A DNA stretch of 64,000 bases from a phage: the sequence record NC_100371.1; one strand, given 5' to 3'. Position 1 is the first letter of the stretch. Each line of letters starts with the position of its first letter. This document shows positions 1 through 25,931 of this stretch, piece after piece. Below the pieces are notes generated by a model. It did no database searches and was not told where the DNA came from. It saw only the letters and a program-made list of their open reading frames with translations. A program made the position numbers and the translations under genes.

Positions 1-832
1 ACTTGTTAGGGTCGTATTTGTTCTTGAAGGTCTGAACCTCGTTAGCCTGTTTTGTCAAGAAAACCTGCGTATCTGTAAAGATTGCAGGATTTACTCTCGC
101 CTGACGTTGAGGGTACCCTGTCGATTGGTTAAACCACTGATTACAAGAGTAATCTCTCATATAGTCATAATCAGAGTATTTGTTTGCATCTTCGTTCCAA
201 CACATATTTAGGTTGGTACCGCCCATGCACACAATGTATTCTGCGATATACTTATCGCTTCTGGTAGGAATACCTATGAACCATCTATTAACAGGCTCAT
301 CCCAAGCTGTGCGCTCATCTTTAACGCAGATAGCAATCCAGTCATGTGTTCCTGTTTTCTTGCATACATCTCGCTTCATACCGTAGTAGAACTCTTTAGT
401 ATTCGGCTCAGGTGCATTTATCAGGTAACTCCATGCCTGATTTGCATAAGTTCCATTGGTTCGCGGGTCATGATCAAAGGCATACATGATGATCCTTTCC
501 CCACCAAGATGTTCGCCAAGAGTAACTTTGACATTCACATCGCCGTAACCATTGCGAACAACATCCATATTATCAATAGAGATGCCCCTAGGGGTGTAGG
601 CAATTTTCAGAGAGCTATCTTCACTGGTGCCTCCAAGTGTAATCCCTATGTTGTTTGTTGTCCCGTCGGCATATCTTACTGTGGCTTCCCAGCGTATTCC
701 GAAATATCCTGCATCATGGCTGACAATTTTCAGTGTACGAGCACCTGGGTGAGGTTTTCCAGGATCAGGCCAAGGGTCTGGGTGTTCGTGGACAGTCAAC
801 GACGTTCCGTTTTGCTCGTTAACCTGCAACAT
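1..832 (-). CDS. tail fibre-like structural protein, partial (runs off window start)
   Basis: Minus-strand frame has no stop codon from 934 down to 1; ATG at 832-830 preceded by GAGGCGG Shine-Dalgarno. Missing from ORF track because no stop lies inside the window; plus ORF 344..886 is its shadow. Confidence 0.5.
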   Translation of the reverse strand, partial: MLQVNEQNGTSLTVHEHPDPWPDPGKPHPGARTLKIVSHDAGYFGIRWEATVRYADGTTNNIGITLGGTSEDSSLKIAYTPRGISIDNMDVVRNGYGDVNVKVTLGEHLGGERIIMYAFDHDPRTNGTYANQAWSYLINAPEPNTKEFYYGMKRDVCKKTGTHDWIAICVKDERTAWDEPVNRWFIGIPTRSDKYIAEYIVCMGGTNLNMCWNEDANKYSDYDYMRDYSCNQWFNQSTGYPQRQARVNPAIFTDTQVFLTKQANEVQTFKNKYDPNK

Positions 833-934
833 TTTACCGCCTCTGCCGTTAGGGTTGAACTCCCATACGGCCTGTGTCTGCACTAAGTTGTTGTAGGTAT
901 TTCGTCTCTGATCATAAATCTCTTGGGTAACATC

Positions 935-2785
935 CTAGGTGACTGATCCAGCATCCATTCTGTGGAGTCGGACCATATACGATGTATCTCCTTCTACCGC
1001 AGGCTGAGTCCCATTCAGCCCGAAGTATACAGTATCGTTAACATGGAACTGCTTGTTTCTACCAACGGTATGCCACTTACCGTCAGAAGGATACGCAGGA
1101 ACTATGGTGTTCCAGTTCAAAGTCCTTGTCGTGTGAGTTCTTCCTGTGCCATGTTTGTCATGATAGGTTATTTTTACAGAGTACAGGCCACGTCTGTTAA
1201 CATTCCTGTTATACTGAGTAACAACAACTTCGTTGGCCCCGCCGTGGTTCCAGTTGGTGGAGAATTGGTAATTTGCATCTGTAACAACCGTACCCGCAGC
1301 ATTTACCAGTTCAATCTTGTCAATAATGAACGTAGCCCCCTCTGGCTGAGGCTTCAATTTCATCTTGACCGTGTCACCAATGTAAATATTGCTAACACTG
1401 CTAACACCGTTAACGTCAAAAATATCATCAACACCCCAACTGTCTACTGGGACATTTTTATACCAATTCTCAGGAACCTCTGTGAACCCCTGACTATTAA
1501 GTCTTCCGCCAAACAGGTTGTTAGAGCCTGCAAAACTTCCCCTTGGGATGCCTGACCACCAAAGTTTACCATTAACAACAGTAAAGGTACCTAAAAAACC
1601 TTCTCTGTGAATGCCCTGGAAATAAACACTCTCTGTCCAGCTAACTGGGAGGCGTTGCTCAACGTATTTGGCTGTGGCAAGAGCTTGATAGTGGATAAAA
1701 TTGGCCCTAGGGTTATTGTTTGCAGATTGTGCGCCAATATCATTACATAAGTTGCGAGAGAATCCGCGATACTGCTTAGTGCCATTATTGAAGAAAATGC
1801 CACTTGTTCCGTACCCACGAGCCATTATTACTTCATGGGTGTAGGTAATATTTAAGGAACGCCATGTATCATCTCCCCAGACATCTTGCCCGTAGAATAC
1901 GTTAACAAGCTGCTGATCATTAGGCTTGTGCATCCTCTGCGTTGCAATTATCGCCCCGTTCGGACCACACATGAATCCTTTCCACTCCTCATCTGCAGGA
2001 ATGCCTTTCAAATCGTTGCGAGTAATCTGAGCAGGGGGCCAAACAAGGTCGTTTCTACTGTTGTTTCTCAGAAAGTCGTATCCAGCAATCCAAAAACCTC
2101 TGGGCCCACCGAAAATAACAGAGTTGTCATGCACCTCGCAGTTGATACTTGGGTTTTTCCAAGGGCCTGTTTCAGGATTTTCCGATGTTTCACCAATCTT
2201 TACAGGGGTTGCATGCTGGTTCTTATCTACATGTAAAGATCCGTAGGTGTTGTTACCAGACCCGTACAGGTGTAAAATGCCGTCACCCTCAGCCTCTGCC
2301 ATAACCCAAACAGTGTTGTTAATACCGCCCATTACCTCGATAAGGCGCTCTGGGTGGGTGTCAAGGTGCAATCCTTGAACAATCTGTTCCGGAAGAGGTG
2401 TCCACTCGTTTACGCAAACATCGTTACCACCTGCCGCAGTGGATCCGATAAGACCTGCAGTGCAGCCGATGTAGAAAAACTGGTTATCAAAAGTCCGGAT
2501 CACAAACGCACGGTCTGCTCTCCACACATGATCAACATTCCAGGCCGTCTCGCTCGGGTAGTTTATAGGGTTACGATCCCCAGTGCGACACTCCCCGAAC
2601 TTGTTATAGCCAGTAATATTAAGCTGACCATCGTCAAAAAGTATAGCTAAGCTATTTACATAAGCTACTGTAGTGCTTGTACCGTCACTGTTGTCTATTG
2701 GGTATGACAGAACAGCAAGTTCCTTAACTCCACCCCTCTTATCGAGGAAATGACGACCAAGTTTTAGCAAAGGGATTGGAAGCAT
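935..2785 (-). CDS. tail fibre or tailspike-like protein (616 aa)
   Basis: Long ORF with GGAG RBS upstream; Gly/Asn/Thr/Trp-rich beta-type composition; sits in a run of fibre-like genes. Function from context only. Confidence 0.4.
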   Translation of the reverse strand: MLPIPLLKLGRHFLDKRGGVKELAVLSYPIDNSDGTSTTVAYVNSLAILFDDGQLNITGYNKFGECRTGDRNPINYPSETAWNVDHVWRADRAFVIRTFDNQFFYIGCTAGLIGSTAAGGNDVCVNEWTPLPEQIVQGLHLDTHPERLIEVMGGINNTVWVMAEAEGDGILHLYGSGNNTYGSLHVDKNQHATPVKIGETSENPETGPWKNPSINCEVHDNSVIFGGPRGFWIAGYDFLRNNSRNDLVWPPAQITRNDLKGIPADEEWKGFMCGPNGAIIATQRMHKPNDQQLVNVFYGQDVWGDDTWRSLNITYTHEVIMARGYGTSGIFFNNGTKQYRGFSRNLCNDIGAQSANNNPRANFIHYQALATAKYVEQRLPVSWTESVYFQGIHREGFLGTFTVVNGKLWWSGIPRGSFAGSNNLFGGRLNSQGFTEVPENWYKNVPVDSWGVDDIFDVNGVSSVSNIYIGDTVKMKLKPQPEGATFIIDKIELVNAAGTVVTDANYQFSTNWNHGGANEVVVTQYNRNVNRRGLYSVKITYHDKHGTGRTHTTRTLNWNTIVPAYPSDGKWHTVGRNKQFHVNDTVYFGLNGTQPAVEGDTSYMVRLHRMDAGSVT

Positions 2786-2796
2786 TGTGTTCTCCA

Positions 2797-2824
2797 GATA
2801 AGAAAACCGCCCCGTCAGGAGCGG
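2797..2824 (-). terminator. intrinsic terminator-like hairpin (minus strand)
   Basis: On minus strand CCGCUCC-UGAC-GGGGCGG (7 bp stem incl. one G-U) followed by UUUUCUUAUCU; lies between stop of 2834..4579 and start of 935..2785. Confidence 0.5.
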
Positions 2825-2833
2825 TCAGATATA

Positions 2834-4579
2834 TTAACGTTGTGCAATAACCACATCCACAATATCACCAACACCACAATATGTCAATTGTAGCAAGGTG
2901 ACACTGTTGGCTTTGTTGTTAATAACAGGAGTAGCCGACAGTATGGCATATTTATCGTGTAAAGTCACGTTGTGGCCTACAGCATCCTGAATGACATAGA
3001 TGATTGCAGTGAACGGGTAAGGTTTATCTTCAGCCGATGTTCCAGGCCATTGCCCTATTGTAAAATCCCCTTTCGCGTGGACAACATACATATTGGCCTG
3101 CCCGTTAGGTGTCCATGTCCCACTAGATGCGTCAGCCTCCTCTAAGTCAAACTCCACCTTCCCTGCATGGAAAGCAGGGGCAGTAATAGTTTTACCAGCT
3201 TCAATTTCTTGAGAGGTGGTTATCTTGCCACTAGAGTTAATGCCATTACAGACAAAGTTGACATTAGAGAAGTCTGGCAGCCACCCAGTCACTGTACCTG
3301 ATATTTCAAGGTTGTGAAGGTGGGTGGTGCCAGTCCCTGCTGCGTTTAAACTAACATCTCCATTTACCTGCAAGTTTCTGGTAACGTTGCAGTTTTCAGA
3401 GTTTGCAGTTGTTGCAGTTAAAGTGGTGGTTGTCAGCTCGGTAATTACACCTTTGTTGGCTGTAAGTCCTTCTCCTTCAAAAGTGGCACGCTCATTCACC
3501 CTCAGAGTATTTAAAGATATGTTCTGGACAGATGCTGTGCCACGAATGACTATAGATCCTCCAACCTCTAAATCTCCATTGATCAGTGCATCTCCCGTGC
3601 TTTCAATATAGCTAGGGTAGATCATGGTGCCATCTACAGAGTAGGTTATCCCTGTAACGGTGCCTGTCACCTCAAGGTTCTTAACCCTAGTGGTCCCATC
3701 AACCTGCAATGTCGGTTCGGTGGCTGCCTTCATGGCATTACCGCGAATGTACACGTAGTCAAAAAAGTTATTACCTAGACCATCAAAATGCACATCGTTG
3801 TTATTAGCCACTGGTTTCCCAGAAGTTATAGTGTCAGCTATAACTCTGTGAGTTGATACTTCATGAGGTTGCAGCTCTGTGCTCCTCCAGTCTGCATGCT
3901 TAGGATCGCTCCACGCAAAAGTCAGTGTAGAAGTATTTGCCGTAAGGATTAGGTTCCTGAAGCGTGCAGTAGAATCTGCTCCATTAACAGGTCCGTGTAA
4001 GGTAAGGGTACCCCCAACTATAGTGTTAGCAAGTTCTGTAAGACCTTTTACCACCAAAGATCCTACAGTAACTTTCATCCCCTCCATGGCTTTAAATATG
4101 CTATCCACATAGTCAACAACAAACTCTGTGTTTGCTATAGACTCGGACTTATCATCCATTGGAGGTGTAGGTACTCTCGGGTCACCTTCGAACCTTGGGC
4201 TGTTAAGTTTTGCGTAGTATTTTGCCATTACTGCAGAGTCGGTGTATAATCTCCAGTTCGGAGATTGTGAAGGATCTGCTGGCATCCTAACCGGGTTAGA
4301 TTTTGACGCTGCTGGAGCGTACCACCACTGAGGGCCTGTATCTCCTTTAAACTCATACAGCTGGTTAAAAACTGTTGTGGATGCACCATACGCCCAAGGG
4401 ATCGGTGGCGTTTTAAAATAAAGGTTGTCAAGCATGGCTTTTCGTACCGTAGGGATAGTGGTCCCATCCTCTACGACAACTTCATCCACAGCGTTACCGT
4501 TGACAACCAAGTGCAAACGTTCAGAATCAACAATTACTTGATCTACCGCCTGCTCGAAGCTTGTCATGTCTTGCGCCAT
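2834..4579 (-). CDS. tail fibre protein with repetitive beta-helix-like segments (581 aa)
   Basis: ORF; repeated V-x-G-x-V/T-G type segments typical of fibre/spike proteins; position in fibre module. Confidence 0.4.
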   Translation of the reverse strand: MAQDMTSFEQAVDQVIVDSERLHLVVNGNAVDEVVVEDGTTIPTVRKAMLDNLYFKTPPIPWAYGASTTVFNQLYEFKGDTGPQWWYAPAASKSNPVRMPADPSQSPNWRLYTDSAVMAKYYAKLNSPRFEGDPRVPTPPMDDKSESIANTEFVVDYVDSIFKAMEGMKVTVGSLVVKGLTELANTIVGGTLTLHGPVNGADSTARFRNLILTANTSTLTFAWSDPKHADWRSTELQPHEVSTHRVIADTITSGKPVANNNDVHFDGLGNNFFDYVYIRGNAMKAATEPTLQVDGTTRVKNLEVTGTVTGITYSVDGTMIYPSYIESTGDALINGDLEVGGSIVIRGTASVQNISLNTLRVNERATFEGEGLTANKGVITELTTTTLTATTANSENCNVTRNLQVNGDVSLNAAGTGTTHLHNLEISGTVTGWLPDFSNVNFVCNGINSSGKITTSQEIEAGKTITAPAFHAGKVEFDLEEADASSGTWTPNGQANMYVVHAKGDFTIGQWPGTSAEDKPYPFTAIIYVIQDAVGHNVTLHDKYAILSATPVINNKANSVTLLQLTYCGVGDIVDVVIAQR

Positions 4580-4588: not shown

Positions 4589-4780
4589 TTAAGCTTTTTG
4601 CTCTTCGTTTTTAACGTGGTCAGGGTGCTGGCAACCCCACCGGAGCGAGATGAATTTGCTAATAAGCTGGGGGCAGGCTACTGAAGGTGCGTATATCCAC
4701 GCATACCATTCAGGAAGCGTATCATTGTACCCCATATGAATAAACACCCCAGTCATCACTGCCATGCCTATGTAGACCAT
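4589..4780 (-). CDS. hypothetical small protein (63 aa), possible fibre accessory
   Basis: Short ORF directly downstream of fibre gene 4864..5910; no motif recognised. Confidence 0.25.
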   Translation of the reverse strand: MVYIGMAVMTGVFIHMGYNDTLPEWYAWIYAPSVACPQLISKFISLRWGCQHPDHVKNEEQKA

Positions 4781-4863
4781 AGCTTAGATTGGGACACTTT
4801 CGTAGGGTCATCCGATGCCGCAACCAACCCCCATAAAAACTGAGTTAATTTCATTTACCCTCT

Positions 4864-5910
4864 TTAAGCATAAGATATAGTGATCCATTGACCGTTTACA
4901 AATTTTTGAATGGCACCAGTCCAATAGTCGCCTTGATACGGGTGTTTATAGGCGTAATTGCCGGAGCACATTACATGCCCAGGGTATACTCTTGATTCTC
5001 TGTAGGTGGTTCTGAAACGGTTTGCTATCCTTACATCTTCAACACCCCTACTAGGCATAGGAATAGTAAGGTTACCACTGCTATCTGCGCTACTACCATT
5101 TACCCTGCGGACCACGTTTCTCCCACCAACTGTTGCATATTGACCCCTGGCGGTGTTATCGTTACAATCCACTCTTCCACCTATTTGAGCGCTGCCGCAG
5201 GATTGTTGTCCATTAACAGTGGCTCTTGGTATCGTTACCGCATTAGCATTTGCAGAGGAGCTTTTTGCATCATTGCATTCAAGATTCCCTTGGATAGCCA
5301 GTCTTGCACGGTTGGCAGTTATAGCATTAAGCTTCATAGCCGAAAACACAGGCTGCCCACCAGAAGGTTGAAATCTCCAACGGAAACCGTCTATTTGGTG
5401 AGAAGGATCATCAAGGTCTGTGCCGTCAGCGCCGCCGATGTTGTCCATAATCCAGAAATCCATCATCGTTTTGTCTGGAGTTATGGTGGTGTATATCGCT
5501 GCATTGTCTGTTGACGCGGATGCAAACTCGATTCTTTGAAGACCCAAAGTTTGAGTCTGGGTCATTGTGTCTCCAGTCTTGTCAACATACAGGTCATCCA
5601 TTTCTTCAGGCGAGTATACATTGAGGACTTTACGTGCAGCAGCTTTGTCTGGAACGTCTGCCAGATTATTAGTGACCCTTAAGAATCTATTATCCCATCC
5701 AGGGACAACATCTTCTGTTAAATGCTTTAGCCACGCAGAGAGCATGTGGAGTTCAAAGTTAACAACTTCACATGCTATCCTTTGTGTCATATCCCAACCT
5801 TTCAATCTCTCTTCTTTGTTCGGTTGAGACTTGTTCAACTCTCCTGTATTTTCAAGCACAACATCCTGATTGGCCCAAATATCGAGAGGGATAACTGGTT
5901 TAGTCATCAC
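4864..5910 (-). CDS. tail fibre protein, paralog A (348 aa)
   Basis: N-terminal (PLDIWA...KGWD) and C-terminal (KFVNGQWITISYA) segments shared with 6923..7963; contains VDKTGDTMTQ. Confidence 0.5.
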   Translation of the reverse strand: MMTKPVIPLDIWANQDVVLENTGELNKSQPNKEERLKGWDMTQRIACEVVNFELHMLSAWLKHLTEDVVPGWDNRFLRVTNNLADVPDKAAARKVLNVYSPEEMDDLYVDKTGDTMTQTQTLGLQRIEFASASTDNAAIYTTITPDKTMMDFWIMDNIGGADGTDLDDPSHQIDGFRWRFQPSGGQPVFSAMKLNAITANRARLAIQGNLECNDAKSSSANANAVTIPRATVNGQQSCGSAQIGGRVDCNDNTARGQYATVGGRNVVRRVNGSSADSSGNLTIPMPSRGVEDVRIANRFRTTYRESRVYPGHVMCSGNYAYKHPYQGDYWTGAIQKFVNGQWITISYA

Positions 5911-5997: not shown

Positions 5998-6312
5998 TTA
6001 CCTTTTACTATGCTCTACAAGCATGTGCAAAATCTTTTGTACATCAGCTCGGATACCGGAGACATCTGTCCTGACATCTTGCTTAAGGTCGTTAATATCG
6101 GCCTCTAGCTTACTTAACCGGGTCTCGATAATGGAATCAAGTCTATCTTTTGTAACCATGCTATTTTTCACTAAAATGAGGTCTTTCTCCAGCTCATCCA
6201 ACCTCTTGGAAATGCCTTTCCATTTGGTGTGCCACTGGTTGAAAGCCCATACACAGATCGGGACAACGGTACCCATGCAGATACCGTACAATGCCGCCAA
6301 ATCCAACTCCAC
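5998..6312 (-). CDS. small membrane protein with N-terminal TM helix and coiled coil (104 aa)
   Basis: Hydrophobic segment ALYGICMGTVVPICVWAF followed by heptad-like charged region (LDELEKDLILVKN...LSKLEADINDLKQDV). Confidence 0.4.
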   Translation of the reverse strand: MELDLAALYGICMGTVVPICVWAFNQWHTKWKGISKRLDELEKDLILVKNSMVTKDRLDSIIETRLSKLEADINDLKQDVRTDVSGIRADVQKILHMLVEHSKR

Positions 6313-6323: not shown

Positions 6324-6908
6324 TTAGAGGGTAGGTCGTTCCGGGAAGAAAATGTCAGGGGCTTTAGATGTATCTATTTCAAGAAGTTTTACCCTGTACA
6401 TTTTCAAATCTCTGATGTTGCGTTTTTGGTCATCAGTAAGATCGTATTCAAGGTCAATCATGTCTTGATAGGCACCAATTCTAGCAGTAGCCCAAGCAAG
6501 TTCTGTCTCTATGACACCCTCTGCCTGTTGAACAAAGAATTCATTGTCTGTGACAAATTCATCACCAACTAAACGCAAAGCGTCGTGGTGGAGCATAATG
6601 TTTTCTGGTACCTCTTCTTTTTTGGCGATAACCACACGAAGACCTGGAGCAGGCCACAAGGCATCAGGTTCTTCTGTAGATGTCTTAAGAATACCCTTCT
6701 CGTCAACAAGTAAGAAGATACAGCCGGGATTTTCTTGTCGCAGTGTTCGTGATTGCACATACCAATCGCCATCATCATTACGTAAAAAATATCCAGTGTA
6801 TGCTGTGTAATCCTCAACCTCCTGAGGAGTCAGCTCCTTGGTCTCCTTGTTGGTGTAGTATTCGCCAGATCCCGGTTGGTAAAGTTTAAACTCTTGAAGT
6901 ATTTTCAT
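6324..6908 (-). CDS. hypothetical protein (194 aa), possible fibre assembly/accessory
   Basis: ORF immediately downstream of fibre paralog B; acidic; no motif recognised. Confidence 0.3.
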   Translation of the reverse strand: MKILQEFKLYQPGSGEYYTNKETKELTPQEVEDYTAYTGYFLRNDDGDWYVQSRTLRQENPGCIFLLVDEKGILKTSTEEPDALWPAPGLRVVIAKKEEVPENIMLHHDALRLVGDEFVTDNEFFVQQAEGVIETELAWATARIGAYQDMIDLEYDLTDDQKRNIRDLKMYRVKLLEIDTSKAPDIFFPERPTL

Positions 6909-6922: not shown

Positions 6923-7963
6923 CTACGCATAATTAACAGTGATCCATTGACCATTTACAAGTTTTTGTAAAGGTCCTGCCCAGTAGGTTGAACCACGCAT
7001 CTCTTTTTTATCACCAAAATGCCAACCTGTGACAACGTAGCCGTTGCGAACTGGAGATTCAGAAACACCATCAACAAGTCTTGCACCGATTCTGATATCC
7101 TGTACCCCTGTCTGCGGGATGGTGATCGTTACATCTCCGTTACCGTTAGCCGTCACTCCATTCACAGAGCGCACCACATTTCTGTTACCGACAACACAAT
7201 GCTGGCTTCTTACAACCATACTGTCACAACTTGCACCGCCATTAACATATACGGACCCAGCGGTCAACTGACTAGCCACATTACAGTTGGTGAATGTTGC
7301 TGTGCTGCTGATGGTAAGGTTGTTACACCGCATGTTATCGACAACTTCAACATTACCTACCACTTTCAACAGCGCACGGTTAGCCGTGATCGCGTTCAGG
7401 TACATCAAAGTGAACTCTGGATTAATGTCTGGCTGAGTTGGCTGGAATCTCCAACGAAACGCATCTACTGTAGATGTGCCACCATCATCAAACGCCCCAG
7501 TGTTATCACTTAACCCAAAGTCGAGAGTTGTCTTATCTGGACCAATAGTTGTCTCTATCCAAGCCTTATCTGTCTCGGCAGCTTTAAAGTTGATACGCTG
7601 CAAACCTAAGGGGCCTGTCATTGTATCGCCTGTAACTTTTACATACCTGGCGTCTGCCTCTTCCTTAGTGATAATCCCAAGGTTTCTACGGGCAACAGGA
7701 ATGTTCAAAAGATCGCTCAGGTTATTATCACGTACCAGATAACGGCCCTCTTGGGCAGGGATCTGCTCGTCAGCAATATATTTTGCCCAAGTCCCGAGCA
7801 TATTGAAAATATAGTTAAGTTCTTCACATGACGGCTTTTGACCAAGATCCCAACCTTTTCTCCACAAATCATCAATCGGGCGTAGCCTGTTCTGTCTGTG
7901 GGTGTTAGGCAGAACCTGATCCTCCTCTGCCCAAATCTCTAATGGAAAACTAGGTTTTGACAT
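6923..7963 (-). CDS. tail fibre protein, paralog B (346 aa)
   Basis: Shares N-terminal (PLEIWA...KGWD) and C-terminal (KLVNGQWITVNYA) segments and VKVTGDTMTG with 4864..5910; central region divergent. Confidence 0.5.
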   Translation of the reverse strand: MSKPSFPLEIWAEEDQVLPNTHRQNRLRPIDDLWRKGWDLGQKPSCEELNYIFNMLGTWAKYIADEQIPAQEGRYLVRDNNLSDLLNIPVARRNLGIITKEEADARYVKVTGDTMTGPLGLQRINFKAAETDKAWIETTIGPDKTTLDFGLSDNTGAFDDGGTSTVDAFRWRFQPTQPDINPEFTLMYLNAITANRALLKVVGNVEVVDNMRCNNLTISSTATFTNCNVASQLTAGSVYVNGGASCDSMVVRSQHCVVGNRNVVRSVNGVTANGNGDVTITIPQTGVQDIRIGARLVDGVSESPVRNGYVVTGWHFGDKKEMRGSTYWAGPLQKLVNGQWITVNYA

Positions 7964-17854: not shown

Positions 17855-18187
17855 TTAAAGTGCTTCCAAGGTAGATACTGATGGGTCGAACATGTTCAAC
17901 CTTATCGGATCTACAATTTTTCCGCTTTTAGAGATGATATTTTCTGCATCTTCGTCCAGAGCCAGAACGTTGACATAAAACAATTTACTTTTCTCGCAAA
18001 CTGGGTAGACAACCATGTTGCCAAACTCATCCTCGGCCTCATAAGTGTCTTCAGTTTCTGTGTAAATGAACCCGACAACCTCTACAAGAAGGGTGTTTTG
18101 CAACACCTCATTCTCGTAAAAGCCGATTTCGTCCATGAAACCGTTAAAATCCTCCCTACCAGTAAACCCAAGGGTAAAAGTATTCAT
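17855..18187 (-). CDS. minor tail protein (110 aa)
   Basis: Small acidic ORF overlapping stop of the 1479-aa gene; size like lambda gpM. Confidence 0.3.
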   Translation of the reverse strand: MNTFTLGFTGREDFNGFMDEIGFYENEVLQNTLLVEVVGFIYTETEDTYEAEDEFGNMVVYPVCEKSKLFYVNVLALDEDAENIISKSGKIVDPIRLNMFDPSVSTLEAL

Positions 18188-21100
18188 TATTCAACACTCT
18201 CCATCATAAGCTGGGTGTCGGTCAATGCAGAGTTCCAAACTCTTACATCTTTAATATGACCAAACAAATGTCTTTCACCTGTCGCCGTTTGACCTCCGAG
18301 ACGGATGAGAGCGCCTCCTGCCAGGAATTCCCAAGAAGATTGCGTTTCCGTACTCACCAATCCGTTAGCAAAAGAGCAGGTTTTACCGTCATCTTTTATC
18401 CTGAACCCAATTTTCAATTTACGTGTTTTAGCCATCTCATAGACACGTCTGTTTGAACCGCCAATATCACAATATGGATAACCATCTTCTGCAATATTTG
18501 CTGCAGAGCCAAATCCCATGATAAATGCAGCACCGTATTGGTGGCCCTCTGTATCAATAACTCTAGGAGCTGCGTTAGGAGCTTTTCCCCAACCTCTCCA
18601 GTTGGCATCCACCGTAGCGGCGATGGTGAACGGTCTAGGTGCTAAATTATCAGTCATTGGGAATTTACAAAGGTCTGCTGCCCTAGTCACTGGTGAAGAC
18701 CCTGTAGGGATAAACGAGGACTCACAAGATCCTAACTCGAACTGAGGTATTGCGACGTCAACCCAATCCCCTACGGCATGTTGAGAACCATCCGGTGGGG
18801 CAATCTGGAACTGGCACCCAATATTCATGTCAGAGTCCACTGCCTCAAACGTAGCAACAACTCTTATCCAAGCAGGTCCGGCTGTTTGCCATCTCTCAGC
18901 TTTTACTTTAATTCTCCCAGCTGCAACACCTGTTGTTTTAACTTCAAGTGTTGACAGGTTAACATAGGCATCACCTTGGAATACTGTGGTGGATCCGTTA
19001 TACATGTCAAATCTTACACGCAGTCTCTGGTGAGCTTTACCACCTCTTGCAATAATAGACCCAGTACAAAATTTCTCAGCACCTGTTACATCTGCACCAC
19101 GGGTGGCTGGAACTGTAGCCAGGTTTAACGCTGTTGTTTCTACACCGGATACGTTGCTTACTGTAAATCTTGCACCTTTTGTGCCGTTGGTGTTTGTTAC
19201 AGTGTTACCGACCGTAATCTGTGACTGGGCTCCCCATTTGCTCGGATCTTCACTGTTAAGCATCAGATTTGTCCTTTGACCTTCAATGAGCAGACCATCT
19301 CTTTCGAAACGTGGTTGGTTTGCCTGTGCAACAGCCATGACACCGCGCTTAGTGAAATAGGTTGCGGTAGAAGGTCTGGAGAAGATCATCTCCCCCTCAC
19401 CTAACACAGGTTTCAGGTTAGAGGTTAAAGGTAGCCACAGATCTGGCATAACTGGGGCAGTTGTACTTTCTGGGAAGCTAGTTCTCTTCCAAGGGCTCCA
19501 GTTCATTCCACTGCCAGTGTTATTATAATACCTTTCCCACGTTCCACCAAGATACATTTTATATATCTGGACACACCCTGTACCCTCGTTGGCAGAGTTT
19601 CTAAGCACGATAAGCGTACCAGCCATCTGCTGTCCTGGTGGGTAGTGTCTCTCCGCTGTGGCGTTGGCATTTGCCTCTTGATGGTAAATACCTTCGCGAT
19701 CCGCTTTGTAATCGTTAAGGTCGCTAGTTCCCAACCCTTGTCCACGGTGCTGAATAACTTTGTTCCACGCTCTGTGGTTACCCTGCTCTATGGAACGGGT
19801 GTACAGCTGATCTAAACGACCTGCCATCTGGAAAGCATAGTTTCCAGAAAATGCCACAGACAACCCACCAACAACCATTGAACCTTCAGGCCCGTTGACG
19901 TTGCCAGCCAGTATTTTGGACGGATTATTATTTCCGAACTGGTTGTTCCAGTCTGCACCTGTGTGGCATACAAAACCACCTGGGGCCGAGAAAGTACCGT
20001 CTTTGTTGAAATTGTAGAATCTGTGAGCTGTGCCAACAACATCGCGAACAATAACTTGACCCGCTTCTGGAGTAGATCTGAACTCTGCCTGACCTTTGAG
20101 ACCAGCACCATTGCCGCATTTAGAGGTAAATGTGCCGTTAGTCAGATCCTCTGTCCCATCTGATGCACACTGGAATCCTGCATTAGAGAATAACGCCTTT
20201 CTAGGACTGCTGTAGCACAAATAGTCAATACCGTCTGCCCATAGCTCGACTTTCGGCATGTTCATTTTGCTCATCACTGCATAGCGTTCAGCAGTGCCTA
20301 TATAGTGCCACTGTGTGCCGCCGCCAGTGTAGAACCCAGAAGTACCTTTGAAGTCAACAATAGGTCTGGTGTTTGTATTGTTATCTCCAAGAACAGCAAG
20401 ATTCAAGTCTGCCGACTGGAGAGGTGAAACGAACTTAACACCGTCCTGATTGTTTGTTACAGAGCCGACCTGATAATCTTGCTCTCTGGTAAACACTTCG
20501 ACAACATTTCTACTTGCGTATATGCTAACAGGGAAAGCACGAGCCTCTACATAGAAAGCAACATACTCTTGTTTACCCCTTGTTGGAGCAACCATCCCAA
20601 GAATTGCTTTTTCATTCTGGTAGAAATTTACTACCCCGTAGAAAGAGTCTCCTCTGTCTGTCCAACCACCAGTTCTATAGTGACACTGCAAGGTGGCGCA
20701 GTTCATAGGGTCACCGCCAGATGAAGATCTGGTAACTATGGTAATATCAGTGCCAGTTGCTGGAGCATAGTACGGATCTGTTCTGACGATGATCGGGTAG
20801 TATTTCCCATCTTCCATTCCTGCGGTTCTTGGCAGTGTTAAGAAGTCTTTTACACCTGCTGCTATAGGAACTTTGAACAGATTCTGAGCATCTGCTAAAG
20901 TTGTAGCCCCAGTGCCGCCTGCGGCTTGAGGTAAAGGTTCCCACTTGGCCTTCCGGTTGTTATACACACCCCATTCCAGAGTGCCGTTACCGGATTCATC
21001 CATCCCTCCATCCCAAACGACCATTTTTGCGGCTTTCTTGGATCCCCAGAACCCTCTTTCTGCTCCTGAACTACGGATCCATTCCCCAAGTCCCCAGTTT

Positions 21101-22626
21101 GTCAGCTGACCAGTGAGATCCCCAACCTGCATGTATTTAGGACAATCTAATACGCCATCCTCACGGAATCCTAAATATCTATGAGTTTCAGATCCTTTTG
21201 CACCTTTGTGGAGGTGAATTGTTAACCAAGCCTTATTATCGTTTCTTACCTCGGAGTAGATCCTATACCCATGCTCAAGAACACCGTCGGTGTCATATTT
21301 ATCCCCATGGAGAATACCTGAAGCAGATTTAACATCTCCTGAGTATTGAGCCAAGTAAAGGTGCCCGAAAGCAGGGGAGTTGTTTTTACCAAGGCCGATA
21401 TGAGATCTGAAGGTGTCATCATTCCGAGGTCTGACCATCGGCTGCCATGCAGTCCACTGGTTTGTGTTGGCCTGATAGGTTCTCAAATACCAAACATCTA
21501 CGTTAGAGAATGGATAGTATTCCTGACGACAGCCAGTGCCACCGTTAGCATTGTTCTGCCAAACAATCAGGTGACCAGCACCAGAACCTGCAGGGTAACC
21601 ATTTGCCTCAGTTGCATTAGCGGTTATCGGCTGGTAGTATATGCCGTCCTGATTACCAGTCAAGTTATTGATATTGAAATTTGCCTCAAGGGCTGCACGT
21701 TGCTTATAGAAAGCACCGATATTGATACGGACTCCAGCGGCATCTCTAGCTCCTGTACCGCCTTGCTCTATAGCAAGAGGTTGCCACGAGGCTGTTTGTT
21801 GGTTCCACATGCCCCAACGGCCTGCTGCATCAAGCTGCAAATACCCTGCCGTGTTTAAATCATCTCCGGCACGGATAACTGTTCTTGTTGGGTTGTTTGC
21901 CTCTAGGCGTTTAAATTCATCACGAAGTGCTATTCTTTTTGTTGTTGCCACACCGTTGGTCACTGCAATGGTGTACATGGCTCCGGAGGTAGCGCCACGG
22001 AAAATACCATCAACAGTTGTAGTATCACGACGAGATACCACACCGTTCAGAAATTTTTCACCAGCTGCTTCAGAAGGGTAGTTAGTAGTTCTTCCCTCTT
22101 CAATAACTGCAGGACCCACAAAGTTGACAAGGTGAATAACATCGCCTACAGTATGCACTGTACCAAAATCTACCCGCTGTGCAAGTGCTTTAGCATCGTT
22201 GGCTGTCTGAACAGTAACATCCATTACATCCTGGACAGACTGCCCTTCGGCTGTCATGATCATAGATGCGCCAATGGTAGATTCCAGCTCCTCCCTTAAG
22301 GACGGATCTGTATATACCATCCATGCAGCGTCAGTAATCCCCCCGTCGGAGTACGGTGAAGACAGTGCAGGAACAGTGTGTGGAAATTCGCCTTTCCAAC
22401 GCAGGTAGAGGTCTTCCTCTTCGAAGTAGGCAAAATCCATTGGGCCGTTTAACTTACCACCTTCCTTAAAGGAGATTACATGAGAAACAGTCCCATCCAC
22501 ATGGACAACATCGCCAATTTTTACACGACGGGTCAGGTCTGGTTGTTGAACAACCAGGTAATCATCCTCTGTCACTGCGGTAGTGGCAGGAAGAGATTCA
22601 ATTCTGACAACTTTAATATCAGCCAT
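18187..22626 (-). CDS. giant tail fibre protein (1479 aa) with internal duplication
   Basis: N-terminal ~100 aa homologous to N-terminus of 25263..25931; duplicated segments (ANATEANGYPAGSGAGHLIVWQNNANGGTGC vs ANANATAERHYPPGQQMAGTLIVLRNSANEGTGC; WQPLAIEQGGTGARDAAG vs WEPLPQAAGGTGATTLADA). Confidence 0.5.
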   Translation of the reverse strand: MADIKVVRIESLPATTAVTEDDYLVVQQPDLTRRVKIGDVVHVDGTVSHVISFKEGGKLNGPMDFAYFEEEDLYLRWKGEFPHTVPALSSPYSDGGITDAAWMVYTDPSLREELESTIGASMIMTAEGQSVQDVMDVTVQTANDAKALAQRVDFGTVHTVGDVIHLVNFVGPAVIEEGRTTNYPSEAAGEKFLNGVVSRRDTTTVDGIFRGATSGAMYTIAVTNGVATTKRIALRDEFKRLEANNPTRTVIRAGDDLNTAGYLQLDAAGRWGMWNQQTASWQPLAIEQGGTGARDAAGVRINIGAFYKQRAALEANFNINNLTGNQDGIYYQPITANATEANGYPAGSGAGHLIVWQNNANGGTGCRQEYYPFSNVDVWYLRTYQANTNQWTAWQPMVRPRNDDTFRSHIGLGKNNSPAFGHLYLAQYSGDVKSASGILHGDKYDTDGVLEHGYRIYSEVRNDNKAWLTIHLHKGAKGSETHRYLGFREDGVLDCPKYMQVGDLTGQLTNWGLGEWIRSSGAERGFWGSKKAAKMVVWDGGMDESGNGTLEWGVYNNRKAKWEPLPQAAGGTGATTLADAQNLFKVPIAAGVKDFLTLPRTAGMEDGKYYPIIVRTDPYYAPATGTDITIVTRSSSGGDPMNCATLQCHYRTGGWTDRGDSFYGVVNFYQNEKAILGMVAPTRGKQEYVAFYVEARAFPVSIYASRNVVEVFTREQDYQVGSVTNNQDGVKFVSPLQSADLNLAVLGDNNTNTRPIVDFKGTSGFYTGGGTQWHYIGTAERYAVMSKMNMPKVELWADGIDYLCYSSPRKALFSNAGFQCASDGTEDLTNGTFTSKCGNGAGLKGQAEFRSTPEAGQVIVRDVVGTAHRFYNFNKDGTFSAPGGFVCHTGADWNNQFGNNNPSKILAGNVNGPEGSMVVGGLSVAFSGNYAFQMAGRLDQLYTRSIEQGNHRAWNKVIQHRGQGLGTSDLNDYKADREGIYHQEANANATAERHYPPGQQMAGTLIVLRNSANEGTGCVQIYKMYLGGTWERYYNNTGSGMNWSPWKRTSFPESTTAPVMPDLWLPLTSNLKPVLGEGEMIFSRPSTATYFTKRGVMAVAQANQPRFERDGLLIEGQRTNLMLNSEDPSKWGAQSQITVGNTVTNTNGTKGARFTVSNVSGVETTALNLATVPATRGADVTGAEKFCTGSIIARGGKAHQRLRVRFDMYNGSTTVFQGDAYVNLSTLEVKTTGVAAGRIKVKAERWQTAGPAWIRVVATFEAVDSDMNIGCQFQIAPPDGSQHAVGDWVDVAIPQFELGSCESSFIPTGSSPVTRAADLCKFPMTDNLAPRPFTIAATVDANWRGWGKAPNAAPRVIDTEGHQYGAAFIMGFGSAANIAEDGYPYCDIGGSNRRVYEMAKTRKLKIGFRIKDDGKTCSFANGLVSTETQSSWEFLAGGALIRLGGQTATGERHLFGHIKDVRVWNSALTDTQLMMESVE

Positions 22627-22663: not shown

Positions 22664-25261
22664 TTAAAGGTACAATCCACGGTATTGAGCATAAAGACCC
22701 AGACCGCGAAGGATTTCGCCAGAGTGATAGCCAACCGGATCAGAAACTGCCCAGCAGCCGTTTAAAATATTATCCCCGTTAATGAAGTGGTGCTTTTGCA
22801 GTAACTTCACACAGGCCTCTACAACAATATCTATTTGAGGTATTGTCTCTGAATACCCGCAAAGACCTAGCCAGCAGCAACCTGCAAGCCATTCACCTAC
22901 CACCCACATCCTGTCACCTCTGTCTTGATAAGAGTATCCACCAGAGGTGTTAAAGTCTGTAGGCAAATTTCCTGAATGGGATGACTGGAATCTGTTGAGG
23001 AACCATGCCCATTTCTGGCAGAACAGGAATAGTCTTTCATCAACAGGCTCTTTATGTTTCTTGAGCTCATATATTGTGCGGCACGCAGCAACAAAAGATC
23101 TTGACTGGAGTTTAGAGTTATCTACCATCTCCCACCAACCAGTCAACCCTTCATTACCTCTCTGCCATACATAACGTGAGGCAACTGGACCCTCTGTCTT
23201 AAATGTATTGTTATACCAGACTTGAGAGTCATACAGAAAGCCTATTGTATTTGACAATCTATGGCGGTCTATGTTTTCTGCGCCCATGCAGTAGACTGCT
23301 GGGTATTGCATACCAGGGTAGGGCCAATTTGGCCTTTCCTCTAAGAGATAATTTTCCTTATCTATCACCTTTCCGGCAGGGAACACACCCGGCGTGTGCC
23401 TGTATGCACCTTGCTTGTAGTTTCTGACATAACAATCGCCAACCTTAGCGGTCGATTCTGTCTTGCTTGCCATCCATACACTAAACCAAATTAGGTAAGC
23501 ATCTCTATCTGCAACATAAAATTGCGGTAGCGTGTTGACGCAATACAGATCAAACAAGCCATTGCCTATCTGCCTGTCGCTCAGACTGAAATCTACAGAG
23601 GTGATCCCCTTGGTGTTAGCAAAGAAAGGTTTAATCTCCTCTTCGGTGTGATGAGGTTGTGTAGGGTCTAGTTTAAAATCTCCCAGAGTAAGAGTTTCTG
23701 TTATCCATTGTCCATTAGTGGCATATAGATCAGCATACCATAACCAACGGTCTTTGTCAAGAAATTTGACCCTTACCATCTCATCATCTGATCGATAAGT
23801 CACTGAGTTTAAAGAAATCTCTCTTCCAAAATTGAAAGTTACTTTGCCTTTTACTATATTGCAACGGGTGAAGTTGTCAGAGTGGTTGTAAATGTCGGTA
23901 TCATACTGCATACTAACACTAGCGCCACCGCTTACGGCAATGTTTTCCTCTTTTGGCAAGAGATATGGGTTACCGTCTTTACCAACCACCTCTACAAAAT
24001 CAGTAACCTTGGCAACTGTTTCTGTTACCTCTGCCCCTCCAAAAGGGACACCTATTCTGTACTGTTTTTTGTTATTGTTGCCATCATTAAGGATGAAATG
24101 TGGCTGGAACAGAACCCCTTCTCCTCCGAAATTCATAACAATTTCAGCATCTCTGCCTATTTTGTATGTAGTCCCTTTTTGGATTATTTCGCAAGGCTGG
24201 CGTGCGTTCATTCTAAAATTGATATATCCGTCACTATCCCTACTTATGACAGGTACTGTTCCTGCAACTAGACAAGTGCCATCTGTGAACGGGGCCTTAA
24301 TCAACGTGGTCTTTCTGAACAGCTTGTCGTAGGCATTTATATCACTAAAATTAAGCAACTTATTGTAAGACTGCTTAAACGCGGTGTAATACTTTTCCTC
24401 ACCTGTCAGGGTGTAGAGTTGATAACAAGCGTCACACCACATCTCTTCCCCATCTAACTCTGGGGCTTGATTGTCTGCAACCACGTTTATAGGATTTACA
24501 ATTACAGGGGATCCAGCAGGTATCACCGATCCGCCCTGCTCTTGAGGCAATCTCACACAATAGGTAACCTTGTGGTTGCCTGTAACACCCTTATCTTGCA
24601 GTTGGATTGTGCCGAACTCTGCAGACGTATGACCACTGTCGGCTATGCTACCGTTGGCCCAATAGCGGTTACCATCCCATGCTATATACCACTCAACCCA
24701 CCAACTTAATCCGGAAGTTGTCCAATTAGGATTAGCATCTGTGCCGCCGTAAACATCAGAGTCTACAGTGTTTCTTCCTAAAACACCGTTATACGCCTGA
24801 AAAGCCTTGTCCAAGTATTCTCCCCATGTCGGGGATCCTGCTGGTATTTTTCCTCTACCTTTGTTAAAAGACACAACCACATCTTTAAACCCACCATGTG
24901 ATGGAACTCCATCTGTGGATAACGGGTAGTGGGACAATCTTTGCATTTTACTTTCTACTGCATATACGCCCAGAAGATGACTGTTGTAGGCTTCCCAAGC
25001 CTCTTTGGCCCTGTCTAGATAAAAATCGCTTTTTGATGCCCTGTATGCCTCAATGTATCCCAGAATCAACACAGCTTGGGACTCATGCATTGCCCAATCA
25101 TTATTTATCTTACTCCCTGACCAACCTGACGCTATAAGTCCATCCTGGTTTACCAGTTTGTTCTGTGTAGGGAGATTGGTAATACCTGTGTTGTTATCGA
25201 GGCACTTCCTGTGCCCCTCGATCATCTGAAATACGTTATCAATGTTGTGTTGAATACGCAT
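22664..25261 (-). CDS. large tail-associated protein, possible glycan-degrading receptor-binding protein (865 aa)
   Basis: Long Trp/Tyr/Asn-rich ORF between baseplate-like genes and giant fibre; enzymatic role is a guess. Confidence 0.3.
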   Translation of the reverse strand: MRIQHNIDNVFQMIEGHRKCLDNNTGITNLPTQNKLVNQDGLIASGWSGSKINNDWAMHESQAVLILGYIEAYRASKSDFYLDRAKEAWEAYNSHLLGVYAVESKMQRLSHYPLSTDGVPSHGGFKDVVVSFNKGRGKIPAGSPTWGEYLDKAFQAYNGVLGRNTVDSDVYGGTDANPNWTTSGLSWWVEWYIAWDGNRYWANGSIADSGHTSAEFGTIQLQDKGVTGNHKVTYCVRLPQEQGGSVIPAGSPVIVNPINVVADNQAPELDGEEMWCDACYQLYTLTGEEKYYTAFKQSYNKLLNFSDINAYDKLFRKTTLIKAPFTDGTCLVAGTVPVISRDSDGYINFRMNARQPCEIIQKGTTYKIGRDAEIVMNFGGEGVLFQPHFILNDGNNNKKQYRIGVPFGGAEVTETVAKVTDFVEVVGKDGNPYLLPKEENIAVSGGASVSMQYDTDIYNHSDNFTRCNIVKGKVTFNFGREISLNSVTYRSDDEMVRVKFLDKDRWLWYADLYATNGQWITETLTLGDFKLDPTQPHHTEEEIKPFFANTKGITSVDFSLSDRQIGNGLFDLYCVNTLPQFYVADRDAYLIWFSVWMASKTESTAKVGDCYVRNYKQGAYRHTPGVFPAGKVIDKENYLLEERPNWPYPGMQYPAVYCMGAENIDRHRLSNTIGFLYDSQVWYNNTFKTEGPVASRYVWQRGNEGLTGWWEMVDNSKLQSRSFVAACRTIYELKKHKEPVDERLFLFCQKWAWFLNRFQSSHSGNLPTDFNTSGGYSYQDRGDRMWVVGEWLAGCCWLGLCGYSETIPQIDIVVEACVKLLQKHHFINGDNILNGCWAVSDPVGYHSGEILRGLGLYAQYRGLYL

Positions 25262-25262
25262 C

Positions 25263-25931
25263 TTAGATAGCTCCTGCGATGATCAGTGCCCCGTACCAAG
25301 TTAGTCCATTATCATATGTTTCCAACTTGAAAATGTCTGTTGCACCAGCTGTAAATGTTAGGATAGGATCTCTTCCGTAGGCCCATTTAACATTGTCAGG
25401 CCAATAAACTTTGTTACCACCAGAGGTCTGCGTTATGCATACAGTTATAGTTCTTGCCACTCCGTCGAGCCCTTCTGTTTGATTTTCAAAAGAGATTGTG
25501 GTGTTTGAAGTGAGCCGAACTTTAAACGTGTCTGCAACGTCAAGATCCATGTCAAGTTGACCACCAATAGAGCCGTAATCAACTATCCTACCTGAAGAAG
25601 TTGCAGCAAGCTCTCCAAAAACAGACCATGCTTTTGCAGACACACCTCCGGCACCCTCTACAGTGGAATCTGGGAGGATTATTTTAGGATAATCTCCATT
25701 CCATGTGTAGTAGCGCTTAGTTTCCGGATCATAAGCAAAATCCTTCTTGCTCTTAAGATAACCGCCCTCTGTGAAATAAACTATTTTAGTAATGCTAAGA
25801 TCATTGACAACATCATCAATCTTAGCCTTTCTTGTCCCGTCAGTCTGGTTGACAACCAAGAAGTCATCACTCAAGACTGTTTCTGCATCTTCAAGATCTG
25901 GGATTGGTATTGTAGGATAAGCTACAGCCAT
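25263..25931 (-). CDS. tail protein sharing N-terminal anchor domain with giant fibre (222 aa)
   Basis: Residues ~10-110 align with N-terminus of 18187..22626 (FLVVNQTDGTRKAKIDDVV vs YLVVQQPDLTRRVKIGDVV; FTEGGYLKSKKDFAY vs FKEGGKLNGPMDFAY). Confidence 0.45.
   Translation of the reverse strand: MAVAYPTIPIPDLEDAETVLSDDFLVVNQTDGTRKAKIDDVVNDLSITKIVYFTEGGYLKSKKDFAYDPETKRYYTWNGDYPKIILPDSTVEGAGGVSAKAWSVFGELAATSSGRIVDYGSIGGQLDMDLDVADTFKVRLTSNTTISFENQTEGLDGVARTITVCITQTSGGNKVYWPDNVKWAYGRDPILTFTAGATDIFKLETYDNGLTWYGALIIAGAI

Follow-up and report, generated by a model that had tools for sequence, protein, structure and literature searches.

The fibre and baseplate locus of an rV5-like Vequintavirus carries an amber codon in its largest fibre gene

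The DNA analysed, a stretch of 64,000 nucleotides from phage record NC_100371.1 (the window), is identified by its sequence as that of an rV5-like Vequintavirus, a myovirus, with positions 1-25931 forming the baseplate-periphery and tail-fibre block. This rV5-type block is already known and is ordinary for a Vequintavirus, apart from a stop codon in the biggest fibre gene. It is very probably a conserved fibre and baseplate locus that encodes two wedge proteins and differing appendages which are displayed together. The gene-by-gene map (Table 1) points to candidate parts for host-range engineering, and the interruption of the biggest appendage gene matters to users of this isolate.

Across positions 1-25000, 131 phage records shared 92-97% nucleotide identity, 96 of them with at least 80% coverage. 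As a finding, such a copy of a multi-fibre locus that is textbook for rV5- and phi92-like phages carries little weight. Close relatives are Escherichia phage rV5 (Vequintavirus V5), B9-1, HMD-6 and EmilHeitz (Bas49). Gene order and orientation are collinear with rV5 gp27 to gp43 and shared with B9-1 and EmilHeitz, and gene-by-gene protein identity to these three phages was 91-100%. The tRNA set is also that of the rV5-type relatives, tRNA-Tyr(GTA) included. Unlike rV5, the phage has TAG and not a Tyr codon at position 617 of its gp27 orthologue, and its gp29 orthologue is frameshifted. Mass spectrometry (MS) of rV5 virions detected gp27, gp30, gp32, gp33, gp34, gp36, gp37, gp41, gp42, gp43 and gp45, while gp28 is absent from that table (PMC3606486); by orthology with the detected proteins, the products of the present locus would be virion components.

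Table 1. Features of the fibre and baseplate locus (positions in the window)
Feature	Position	Strand	Evidence or remark
rV5 gp27 orthologue, Ig-like/Big_2, 1878 aa in relatives	1-2785	-	split by in-frame TAG 935-937
581-aa baseplate-attached tail fibre, rV5 gp28 orthologue	2834-4579	-	phiTE long-fibre N-terminus match
rV5 gp29 orthologue (88-aa small membrane protein)	4589-4854	-	alignment with B9-1, rV5
348-aa short tail fibre paralogue, rV5 gp30	4864-5910	-	PHROG 4465 (tail fibre label)
104-aa ORF, rV5 gp31	5998-6312	-	
194-aa tail-fibre assembly chaperone, rV5 gp32	6324-6908	-	Pfam Caudo_TAP E 1e-11; PHROG 136
346-aa short tail fibre, rV5 gp33	6923-7963	-	phiTE short-fibre N-terminus match
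690-aa receptor-binding protein, N4 gp65 type, rV5 gp34 (predicted)	7976-10048	-	Pfam NCTSP domains, GMSHY
228-aa wedge 1	10048-10734	-	9mjn_dh Wedge 1 E 7e-66; phi92 gp146
496-aa wedge 2	10746-12236	-	9cuy_T Wedge 2 E 1e-158; phi92 gp145 E 9e-56; Pfam Baseplate_J
1279-aa lambda-J-like fibre protein, rV5 gp37	12342-16181	-	Pfam Phage_Tail_Tip, Ig_J_second, Ig_J
145-aa DUF6950 protein	16181-16618	-	within rV5 gp40 to gp37 module
188-aa tail protein	16606-17172	-	within rV5 gp40 to gp37 module
196-aa Dit-like protein, rV5 gp40	17159-17749	-	remote homologues in siphovirus tail modules
110-aa cassette-specific ORF	17855-18187	-	partner of distal part of 1479-aa gene
1479-aa long fibre, allele of rV5 gp41	18187-22626	-	Tail_spike_N, GTA_spike_fiber
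865-aa protein, rV5 gp42	22664-25261	-	predicted (alpha/alpha)6 glycosidase-type fold with beta-sandwich insertions
222-aa adaptor-like protein, rV5 gp43	25263-25931	-	Tail_spike_N docking domain, small C-terminal domain
Terminator-like hairpins	17841-17822, 12335-12314, 5991-5964, 2826-2805	-	consensus scan

An earlier note had read the region as an unusually large receptor-binding repertoire of at least ten fibre- or spike-like genes and a partial one. Its ten ORFs (616, 581, 348, 346, 690, 496, 1279, 1479, 865 and 222 aa) all lie on the minus strand; their sizes and coordinates were right, and they are real genes whose annotated counterparts in B9-1, EmilHeitz and rV5 share 95-100% protein identity with them, and several orthologues were found in virions of rV5 by MS (PMC3606486). 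The count was nevertheless too high, as nine fibre, receptor-binding or fibre-associated genes were retained, one of them interrupted. Baseplate wedge 2 accounts for the 496-aa ORF, one gp27 orthologue interrupted by the TAG codon yields both the 616-aa ORF and the partial one, and a globular shape is predicted for the 865-aa product. The proteins counted as true fibres are the 581-aa protein, the 348-aa and 346-aa paralogues, the lambda-J-like 1279-aa protein, the 1479-aa protein and the adaptor-like 222-aa protein. A repertoire of this size is large against phages generally but the norm for this subfamily. The proposed multi-fibre, multi-receptor apparatus agrees with the published view of the Vequintavirinae, and homology to phiTE and phi92 chains and an N4-gp65-type protein argues for it here. 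This many-fibred 'nanosized Swiss army knife' has been described from genomics, MS of rV5 (PMC3606486) and cryo-EM of phi92 and phiTE, with short fibres beside three co-expressed lateral fibre sets, and with conserved glycan-active domains (PMC8594841).

The Wedge 2 match of the 496-aa protein covers residues 3-495, and because of this near full-length homology the ORF was assigned to a wedge protein and not to a fibre. By analogy with the phiTE and phi92 structures, in which fibres attach to wedges (PMC11972413, PMC13450770), wedge 1 and wedge 2 are taken as the platform holding the fibres. Four chains of the baseplate of Pectobacterium phage phiTE (PDB 9CUY/9MJN; PMC11972413) were matched, namely wedge 1, wedge 2 and the N-termini of the short and long fibres. 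It is thus probable that the phiTE arrangement holds here too, in which the short fibre attaches to wedge 1 and the long fibre to wedge 2A and the sheath initiator. The distal fibre parts differ (581 aa here and 793 aa in phiTE; 346 aa here and 554 aa in phiTE), phiTE is flagellotropic, and for the J-like and N4-gp65-like proteins the structural matches lay outside phiTE. The wedge proteins gp145 and gp146 and the short-fibre type of phi92 (cryo-EM, PMC13450770) are likewise homologous to this locus. Phi92 displays three fibre types simultaneously (PMC13450770), and a homologous fibre protein binds the N4 glycan receptor (bioRxiv 10.64898/2026.04.02.716166); phi92 belongs to another genus and carries the endosialidase gp143 and the colanic-acid-degrading gp150.

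The N-terminus of the 581-aa fibre matched the phiTE long fibre with an E value of 2e-78; the predicted monomer model was of poor quality. The 348-aa and 346-aa short fibres are paralogues with 43% identity. Residues 1-108 of the 346-aa protein matched the phiTE 'Short tail fiber' (9cuy_c, E 1.5e-19), a similarity by which the protein is assigned an N-terminal wedge-1-binding short-fibre domain, and its C-terminus matched Mu fibre protein S (5yvq). For rV5 gp30, HHpred similarity to T4 gp12 and detection in virions by MS were reported (PMC3606486). The gp29 orthologue has lost 1 nt near position 4774, and the resulting frameshift leads to a stop after 28 codons.

The 690-aa protein contains the domains TIM-barrel_NCTSP (PF23845; E 7e-80, 269 bits against a cut-off of 27) and NCTSP_N (PF23844; E 1e-12), matches PDB 9lc0_M and carries the motif GMSHY at residues 337-341. 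This k-mer was reported to be perfectly conserved among phages binding the N4 glycan receptor (bioRxiv 10.64898/2026.04.02.716166). The N-terminal and TIM-barrel NCTSP domains and GMSHY are shared with gp65 of phage N4 ('non-contractile tail sheath' or N4-glycan-receptor-binding protein), and the 690-aa protein is predicted to bind the N4 glycan receptor and is possibly a deacetylase of it. Whereas N4 gp65 is a podovirus tail sheath protein, the 690-aa protein belongs as an appendage to the baseplate of a contractile tail and has an extra N-terminal Calx-beta-like region, which scored under the Pfam cut-off. Its orthologue rV5 gp34 reached a coverage of 10.3% in virion MS (PMC3606486). The N4 glycan receptor serves as a receptor (PMC11990801; bioRxiv 10.64898/2026.04.02.716166). 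All tested Vequintavirinae needed wecB, now read as N4 glycan receptor, and LPS outer-core glucose (PMC8594841), and dependence on the wecB/ngr N4 glycan receptor genes was demonstrated for BASEL Vequintavirinae (PMC8594841, PMC11990801).

The tail-tip module (12342-17749) corresponds to rV5 gp40 to gp37 and to PHROG 31, 1302 and 2048. The 1279-aa protein matched the lambda J structures 8iyk and 8xcj, with Ig_J, Ig_J_second and Phage_Tail_Tip in common, and its Dit-like, tail-protein and DUF6950 neighbours stand in siphovirus order. RefSeq notes for genes of the module cite similarity to siphovirus PY54, and remote homologues of the 196-aa protein were located in tail modules of siphoviruses of 42-60 kb. 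The NCBIfam model lambda_TipJ scored 149 bits with the 1279-aa protein against a cut-off of 1950 and aligned with residues 497-722 only. Judged by these comparisons, the protein is J-like by its domains, yet it is no lambda J orthologue. Unlike in lambda, the J-like module is encoded here by a myovirus with its own hub and spike.

In the 1479-aa protein, Tail_spike_N was found at residues 46-103 and a GTA_spike_fiber domain at 1113-1317. Over residues 1-1049 the identity to rV5 gp41 is 91.6%, whereas the rest of the protein and the 110-aa ORF are missing from rV5, the gp41 of which (1272 aa) ends with Peptidase_S74 in place of the lectin- or 'GTA spike fibre'-type distal end present here. EmilHeitz and B9-1 carry the 1479-aa allele too, and the distal cassette with the 110-aa ORF was found in 35 of about 131 relatives. 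On this comparison of genomes, fibre variation is allelic, by exchange of cassettes between phages, and not a matter of switching inside one genome. The 222-aa protein (Tail_spike_N, E 3e-10) shares 38% identity with the N-terminal part of the 1479-aa protein and showed N-terminal matches to CBA120 tailspike proteins; rV5 gp43 was found in virions (PMC3606486). Tail_spike_N, above the Pfam cut-off in both proteins, is shared with the branched tailspike systems of CBA120 and G7C, but neither the 1479-aa nor the 222-aa protein has a beta-helix depolymerase body after this docking domain. We infer by analogy that the two proteins may branch as in CBA120 and G7C.

Of the folds for which the earlier note had suggested a search (beta-helix, GH, lyase), an (alpha/alpha)6 glycosidase-type fold was predicted for the 865-aa protein, while no right-handed beta-helix or endosialidase catalytic domain, as expected of a tailspike depolymerase, was found in the proteins of the locus. 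The 865-aa model is a six-hairpin toroid like the (alpha/alpha)6-barrel glycoside hydrolases and epimerases of the GH8, GH88, GH105 and GH76 type, with a sequence identity of only 10-13% to its structural matches. As the homologue search gave few clusters (6), the alignment behind this model is shallow. The protein is predicted to be enzyme-like and not fibre-shaped, and is probably a fibre-associated glycan-processing enzyme.

The appendages would comprise the two short fibres (348 and 346 aa) with their 194-aa chaperone, the 581-aa long fibre, the 690-aa N4-glycan binder, the J-like fibre with the tip module (196, 188, 145 and 1279 aa), the 1479-aa fibre with its exchangeable cassette and 110-aa partner, the 865-aa (alpha/alpha)6 protein, the 222-aa adaptor-like protein and the giant Ig-like gp27 orthologue. 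What is known of phi92, phiTE, LL12 and the BASEL phages suggests by analogy that appendages which bind or process glycans would attach to the surface polysaccharide and cross it. On E. coli K-12 the N4 glycan receptor would, by the same kind of reasoning, be the primary receptor, the short fibres would next engage the LPS outer core, and the wedge-fibre network would signal to the sheath initiator and bring about tail contraction. Contacts from fibre to wedge to sheath initiator are known in phiTE and phi92 (PMC11972413, PMC13450770). Host-range differences between isolates would stem from allelic cassettes at the fibre tips.

The earlier note had also called the host range switchable, in which case the fibre genes would be alternatives, governed by an invertible segment as with Mu Gin or P1 Cin, by phase variation or by a diversity-generating retroelement. 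The position of the two short-fibre paralogues on either side of one chaperone and the cassette at the 1479-aa gene's distal end could be read in this way. However, inverted repeats of at least 20 nt were absent from positions 1-27000, all genes lie on one strand with every ORF of the locus accounted for, and no ORF of the locus matched recombinase or reverse-transcriptase families. Cassette differences fall between genomes and never within one, and the fibre types of phi92 are present together in cryo-EM (PMC8594841, PMC13450770), so that switching is extremely improbable. Alternatively, most of these proteins might not bind receptors, and adsorption might be set only by the short fibres together with the 690-aa protein. 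This would agree with the common dependence on wecB (N4 glycan receptor) and LPS outer-core glucose, with the suggestion of Maffei et al. of effective monovalency on K-12, where broad recognition does not equal a broad plaquing range (PMC8594841), with the high conservation of most of the locus and with the viability of several isolates that have a disrupted gp27 orthologue. Yet allelic variation of a kind typical for receptor-binding tips is seen in the C-terminal tips of both the gp41 and the gp27 orthologues, the phi92 homologues include a proven endosialidase required on encapsulated hosts (PMC13450770), and a broad lysis host range of the group is documented (PMC8594841). This reading appears unlikely, though it keeps some weight, and a set of appendages displayed together is preferred.

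The 616-aa ORF occupies 935-2785, and its open continuation (1-934, 311 codons) leaves the window at the edge; a single frame spans both and is interrupted by one stop only, the TAG at 935-937. Codon 617 is TAT or TAC (Tyr617) in B9-1, EmilHeitz and rV5. The match to PHROG 15684 spans residues 1-616 of 1878, and the Big_2/intimin-like domain (residues 1682-1735 of the full-length orthologue) lies past the amber codon. The orthologue is annotated in the BASEL collection as 'lateral tail fiber protein with intimin domain', and three peptides of rV5 gp27 were found by virion MS (PMC3606486). A homologue search with the 616-aa protein gave only 4 clusters. In a non-suppressor host the amber codon allows at most a 616-aa N-terminal fragment; as the gene reads, the phage carries a genetic break in one arm of its adsorption apparatus.

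As the amber codon replaces a Tyr codon, the tRNA cluster was examined for a suppressor. The anticodon of its tRNA-Tyr (46834-46918) is the usual GTA, CTA occurs in no tRNA, and a phage-encoded amber suppressor was rejected. Recoding of TAG was rejected as well: TAG closes the 346-aa short-fibre gene at the length of its orthologues, and an internal TAG occurs in none of the other ORFs.

If the TAG and the 1-nt deletion in gp29 were sequencing or assembly errors, the repertoire would be full and intact. Both lesions fall inside 4 kb, and no sequence identical to the amber allele is on record: a 41-mer with this phage's amber flanks had zero megablast matches, and no database record was found for the exact 616-aa product. 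Both contigs recovered by a metagenome scan (2) have Tyr at codon 617, while pattern scans of IMG/VR gave 0 matches for the TAG allele and likewise 0 for the TAY allele and so do not bear on the question. Phage magaca, however, was sequenced independently and has TAG at the same codon, with the gene annotated as two CDS. In further isolates the gene is disrupted at other places, which indicates that its loss is biologically tolerated. The remaining ORFs of the 26 kb keep exactly orthologous lengths, which argues against error-prone assembly in general. Errors are thus an unlikely, if not negligible, explanation, and a genuine amber codon is preferred.

Synonymous sites flanking codon 617 differ between magaca and this phage, a 41-mer with the flanks of magaca found magaca alone by megablast, and 694 distinct single-nucleotide changes in the gene would create a stop. 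Tyr617-to-TAG arose independently in the two phages. It is conceivable, but decidedly improbable, that the change represents a selected, site-specific truncation of the giant Ig-like gene, as a recurrent on/off or short/long-form polymorphism in one arm of the multivalent apparatus, and not random decay.

The sole sizeable intergenic gaps of the locus coincide with the four terminator-like hairpins, which set apart five co-oriented units; the hairpins are putative terminators.

The minus-strand open reading frames (ORFs) of 616, 581, 348, 346, 690, 496, 1279, 1479, 865 and 222 aa, from which the earlier note had counted at least ten fibre or spike genes, were all present in the ORF list of the window with the sizes and coordinates claimed. 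Smaller ORFs of 104, 194, 228, 145, 188, 196 and 110 aa were interspersed. The GC content was even (41-47%), and the strand skew was consistent with a single long leftward transcription block. A megablast search with window positions 1-25000 against 50,697 phage records gave 131 matching records with 92-97% identity, of which 96 covered at least 80% of the query. Almost all were Escherichia phages of the genus Vequintavirus, with B9-1 as the top match (97.2%). Eighteen unannotated GenBank records titled 'Campylobacter phage' (MG0656xx; stated host Campylobacter jejuni) were 92-93% identical to the locus, an odd attribution of name and host. The gene order in the annotated regions of EmilHeitz (BASEL Bas49), B9-1 and rV5 was identical to that of the window, and tblastn gave protein identities of 95-100% for all window ORFs, except that in the comparison with rV5 the N-terminal part of gp27 reached 91%. 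The window ORFs therefore correspond one-to-one to rV5 gp27-gp45, and by sequence the minus-strand ORFs of the locus are real genes.

In the Vequintavirinae this locus is mostly highly conserved, with allelic variation in three large genes, and infection requires wecB and the outer-core glucose of LPS (Maffei et al., PMC8594841). The wecB-dependent glycan is now named N4 glycan receptor, NGR (PMC11990801). The NGR-binding protein of Vequintavirus was identified via its homology to N4 gp65, and the k-mer GMSHY is perfectly conserved (bioRxiv 10.64898/2026.04.02.716166). Mass spectrometry of rV5 virions detected the fibres gp30, 32, 33, 41 and 43, the tail proteins gp37, 42 and 49 and the baseplate proteins gp36 and 45; the tables also include gp27 (3.1% coverage), gp34 (10.3%) and gp41 (8.1%) (PMC3606486). 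Cryo-EM structures are available for phi92 (PMC13450770) and the related phiTE (PMC11972413).

The count of ten fibres was nevertheless too high, as the 616-aa and partial ORFs form one gene and the 496-aa protein is a wedge protein. The latter matched phiTE Wedge 2 over its full length (9cuy_T, E 1e-158) as well as phi92 gp145 (E 9e-56) and Pfam Baseplate_J, which ruled it out as a fibre. The 228-aa protein is Wedge 1, the equivalent of phi92 gp146. The 346-aa (gp33) and 348-aa (gp30) proteins are paralogues with 43% identity; the former resembled the short tail fibre of phiTE at its N-terminus (E 1.5e-19) and the Mu S fibre at its C-terminus. The 690-aa protein (gp34) matched Pfam TIM-barrel_NCTSP (E 7e-80) and NCTSP_N, has GMSHY at residues 337-341 and is a predicted N4 gp65-type binder of NGR.

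The 1279-aa protein (gp37) contains Ig_J, Ig_J_second and Phage_Tail_Tip domains and matched lambda J in the PDB, while its score against NCBIfam lambda_TipJ (149 bits) was far below the cut-off of 1950. Upstream are genes for a Dit-like protein of 196 aa, a tail protein of 188 aa and a DUF6950 protein of 145 aa, and according to RefSeq notes all four proteins are related to siphovirus PY54. Remote homologues of the Dit-like protein (27-33% identity) were found within tail modules of siphoviruses of 42-60 kb. Domains, neighbours, PY54 notes and homologues thus identify, at the sequence level, a siphovirus-type tip module embedded in a myovirus fibre locus.

In the 1479-aa protein (gp41), a Tail_spike_N docking domain lies at the N-terminus and residues 1113-1317 form a 'GTA spike fibre' domain. 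The 222-aa protein (gp43) also has a Tail_spike_N domain, which shares 38% identity with the one in the 1479-aa protein, as well as a small C-terminal domain. This suggests that both proteins may dock at a common site, as happens in the branched systems of CBA120 and G7C. The 1479-aa protein and rV5 gp41 have residues 1-1049 in common. In place of the distal ~430 aa, however, rV5 gp41 has an end with Peptidase_S74 (a self-cleaving chaperone), and rV5 lacks a counterpart of the 110-aa ORF. Of about 131 related records, only 35 carried the window's cassette, and in each of them it was accompanied by the small 110-aa ORF, which probably encodes a cassette-specific chaperone or partner. The C-terminal ~127 codons of gp27 also form allele classes. 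To judge from these comparisons, variation in the locus is between genomes. The 'switchable' host range proposed earlier was without support, as inverted repeats of at least 20 nt were absent from positions 1-27000 and the locus encodes neither a recombinase nor a reverse transcriptase.

The multivalent adsorption apparatus claimed in the earlier note was borne out by homology to known parts and by the published view of the Vequintavirinae; the enzymatic roles, otherwise based on size and composition, were weakly right for two proteins, and switching was wrong. The homology concerns the parts, and the order of events would be as follows. Glycan-directed appendages would bind NGR and other surface polysaccharides, and the short fibres would bind the LPS outer core. 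In line with proposals for phi92 and phiTE, the fibre-wedge-sheath-initiator network could then rearrange and lead to contraction. As a finding the adsorption locus is of low interest, since it has been described before and is usual for the genus; the unusual points are genome-specific only, namely an amber codon, its position common with magaca, and a frameshift in gp29.

The amber codon lies in the gp27 orthologue. Translation of this region gave one frame with a single stop, whereas the B9-1 orthologue is uninterrupted (1878 aa), and PHROG 15684 aligned the 616-aa ORF to residues 1-616 of 1878. The stop is a TAG at codon Tyr617, which is TAT in B9-1 and rV5 and TAC in EmilHeitz (all Tyr). 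The sole recognisable domain of the full protein, a Big_2/intimin-like Ig domain (residues 1682-1735), is downstream of the TAG. The N-terminus is probably RCC1-like, based on PHROG 4219 and on PF00415 in distant homologues of the 616-aa part.

Suppression of the TAG by a phage tRNA was rejected, as the tRNA-Tyr has the normal anticodon GTA, and so was recoding, as the 346-aa gene ends on TAG at its orthologous length. The TAG may be a sequencing error; a TAG at exactly the Tyr617 codon also occurs in magaca (MN850612; L004 4095-4097), isolated on MG1655 and annotated with two CDS, and in no record besides these two. The flanks differ at synonymous sites (ACT TAG GAT GTG in magaca, ACC TAG GAT GTT in the window), and codon 617 is TAT in a genome from metagenomic data whose flanks are of the magaca type, so the two T-to-G changes look independent. 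Since 694 single-nucleotide nonsense changes are possible in the gene, recurrence at codon 617 would have a chance of about 1 in 700 under uniform mutation, and coincidence is unlikely. In at least four further cultured Vequintavirus isolates, nomine (L005), Alma (L006), V18 (L007) and APECc02 (NC_041869), gp27 is split or has lost part of its sequence at sites other than codon 617, which suggests that the gene is repeatedly lost in cultured isolates, dispensable in the laboratory and often lost on propagation.

The gp29 orthologue (88-aa membrane protein) has a 1-nt deletion near 4774 compared with B9-1 and rV5, which leaves 28 codons before the stop; a product of ~60 aa could still start at an internal ATG. 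Terminator-like hairpins divide the locus into five units (see table).

Features of the fibre locus and the tRNA cluster
Feature	Position	Strand	Remarks
gp27 orthologue	1-2785	minus
TAG in gp27 orthologue	935-937	minus
gp29 orthologue	4589-4854	minus
194-aa chaperone			between 346-aa and 348-aa genes; Caudo_TAP
Siphovirus-type tail-tip module	12342-17749		196 aa Dit-like, 188 aa tail protein, 145 aa DUF6950, 1279 aa lambda-J-like
Cassette of 1479-aa gene	17855-19480
Terminator-like hairpin	17841-17822	coding	all four in the only sizeable intergenic gaps
Terminator-like hairpin	12335-12314	coding
Terminator-like hairpin	5991-5964	coding
Terminator-like hairpin	2826-2805	coding
Unit			222, 865, 1479 and 110 aa
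Unit			J-like module
Unit			two wedges, 690 aa, 346-aa short fibre, chaperone, 104-aa ORF
Unit			348-aa short fibre, gp29 orthologue, 581-aa long fibre
Unit			gp27 orthologue alone
tRNA-like gene, 99 nt	46429-46527	minus	tRNA cluster; ARAGORN 'tRNA-???', four-base anticodon
tRNA-Tyr(GTA)	46834-46918

The tRNA-Tyr gene was overlooked by the default run of ARAGORN. The tRNA-like gene scored 37.5 bits against Rfam tRNA and has a long extra arm; it was rejected as an amber suppressor, and the six tRNAs reported for rV5 include no counterpart. The stop codons of the 36 minus-strand ORFs between 935 and 43741 were strongly skewed (33 TAA, 2 TAG and 1 TGA), the internal amber codon of the gp27 orthologue being one of the two TAGs.
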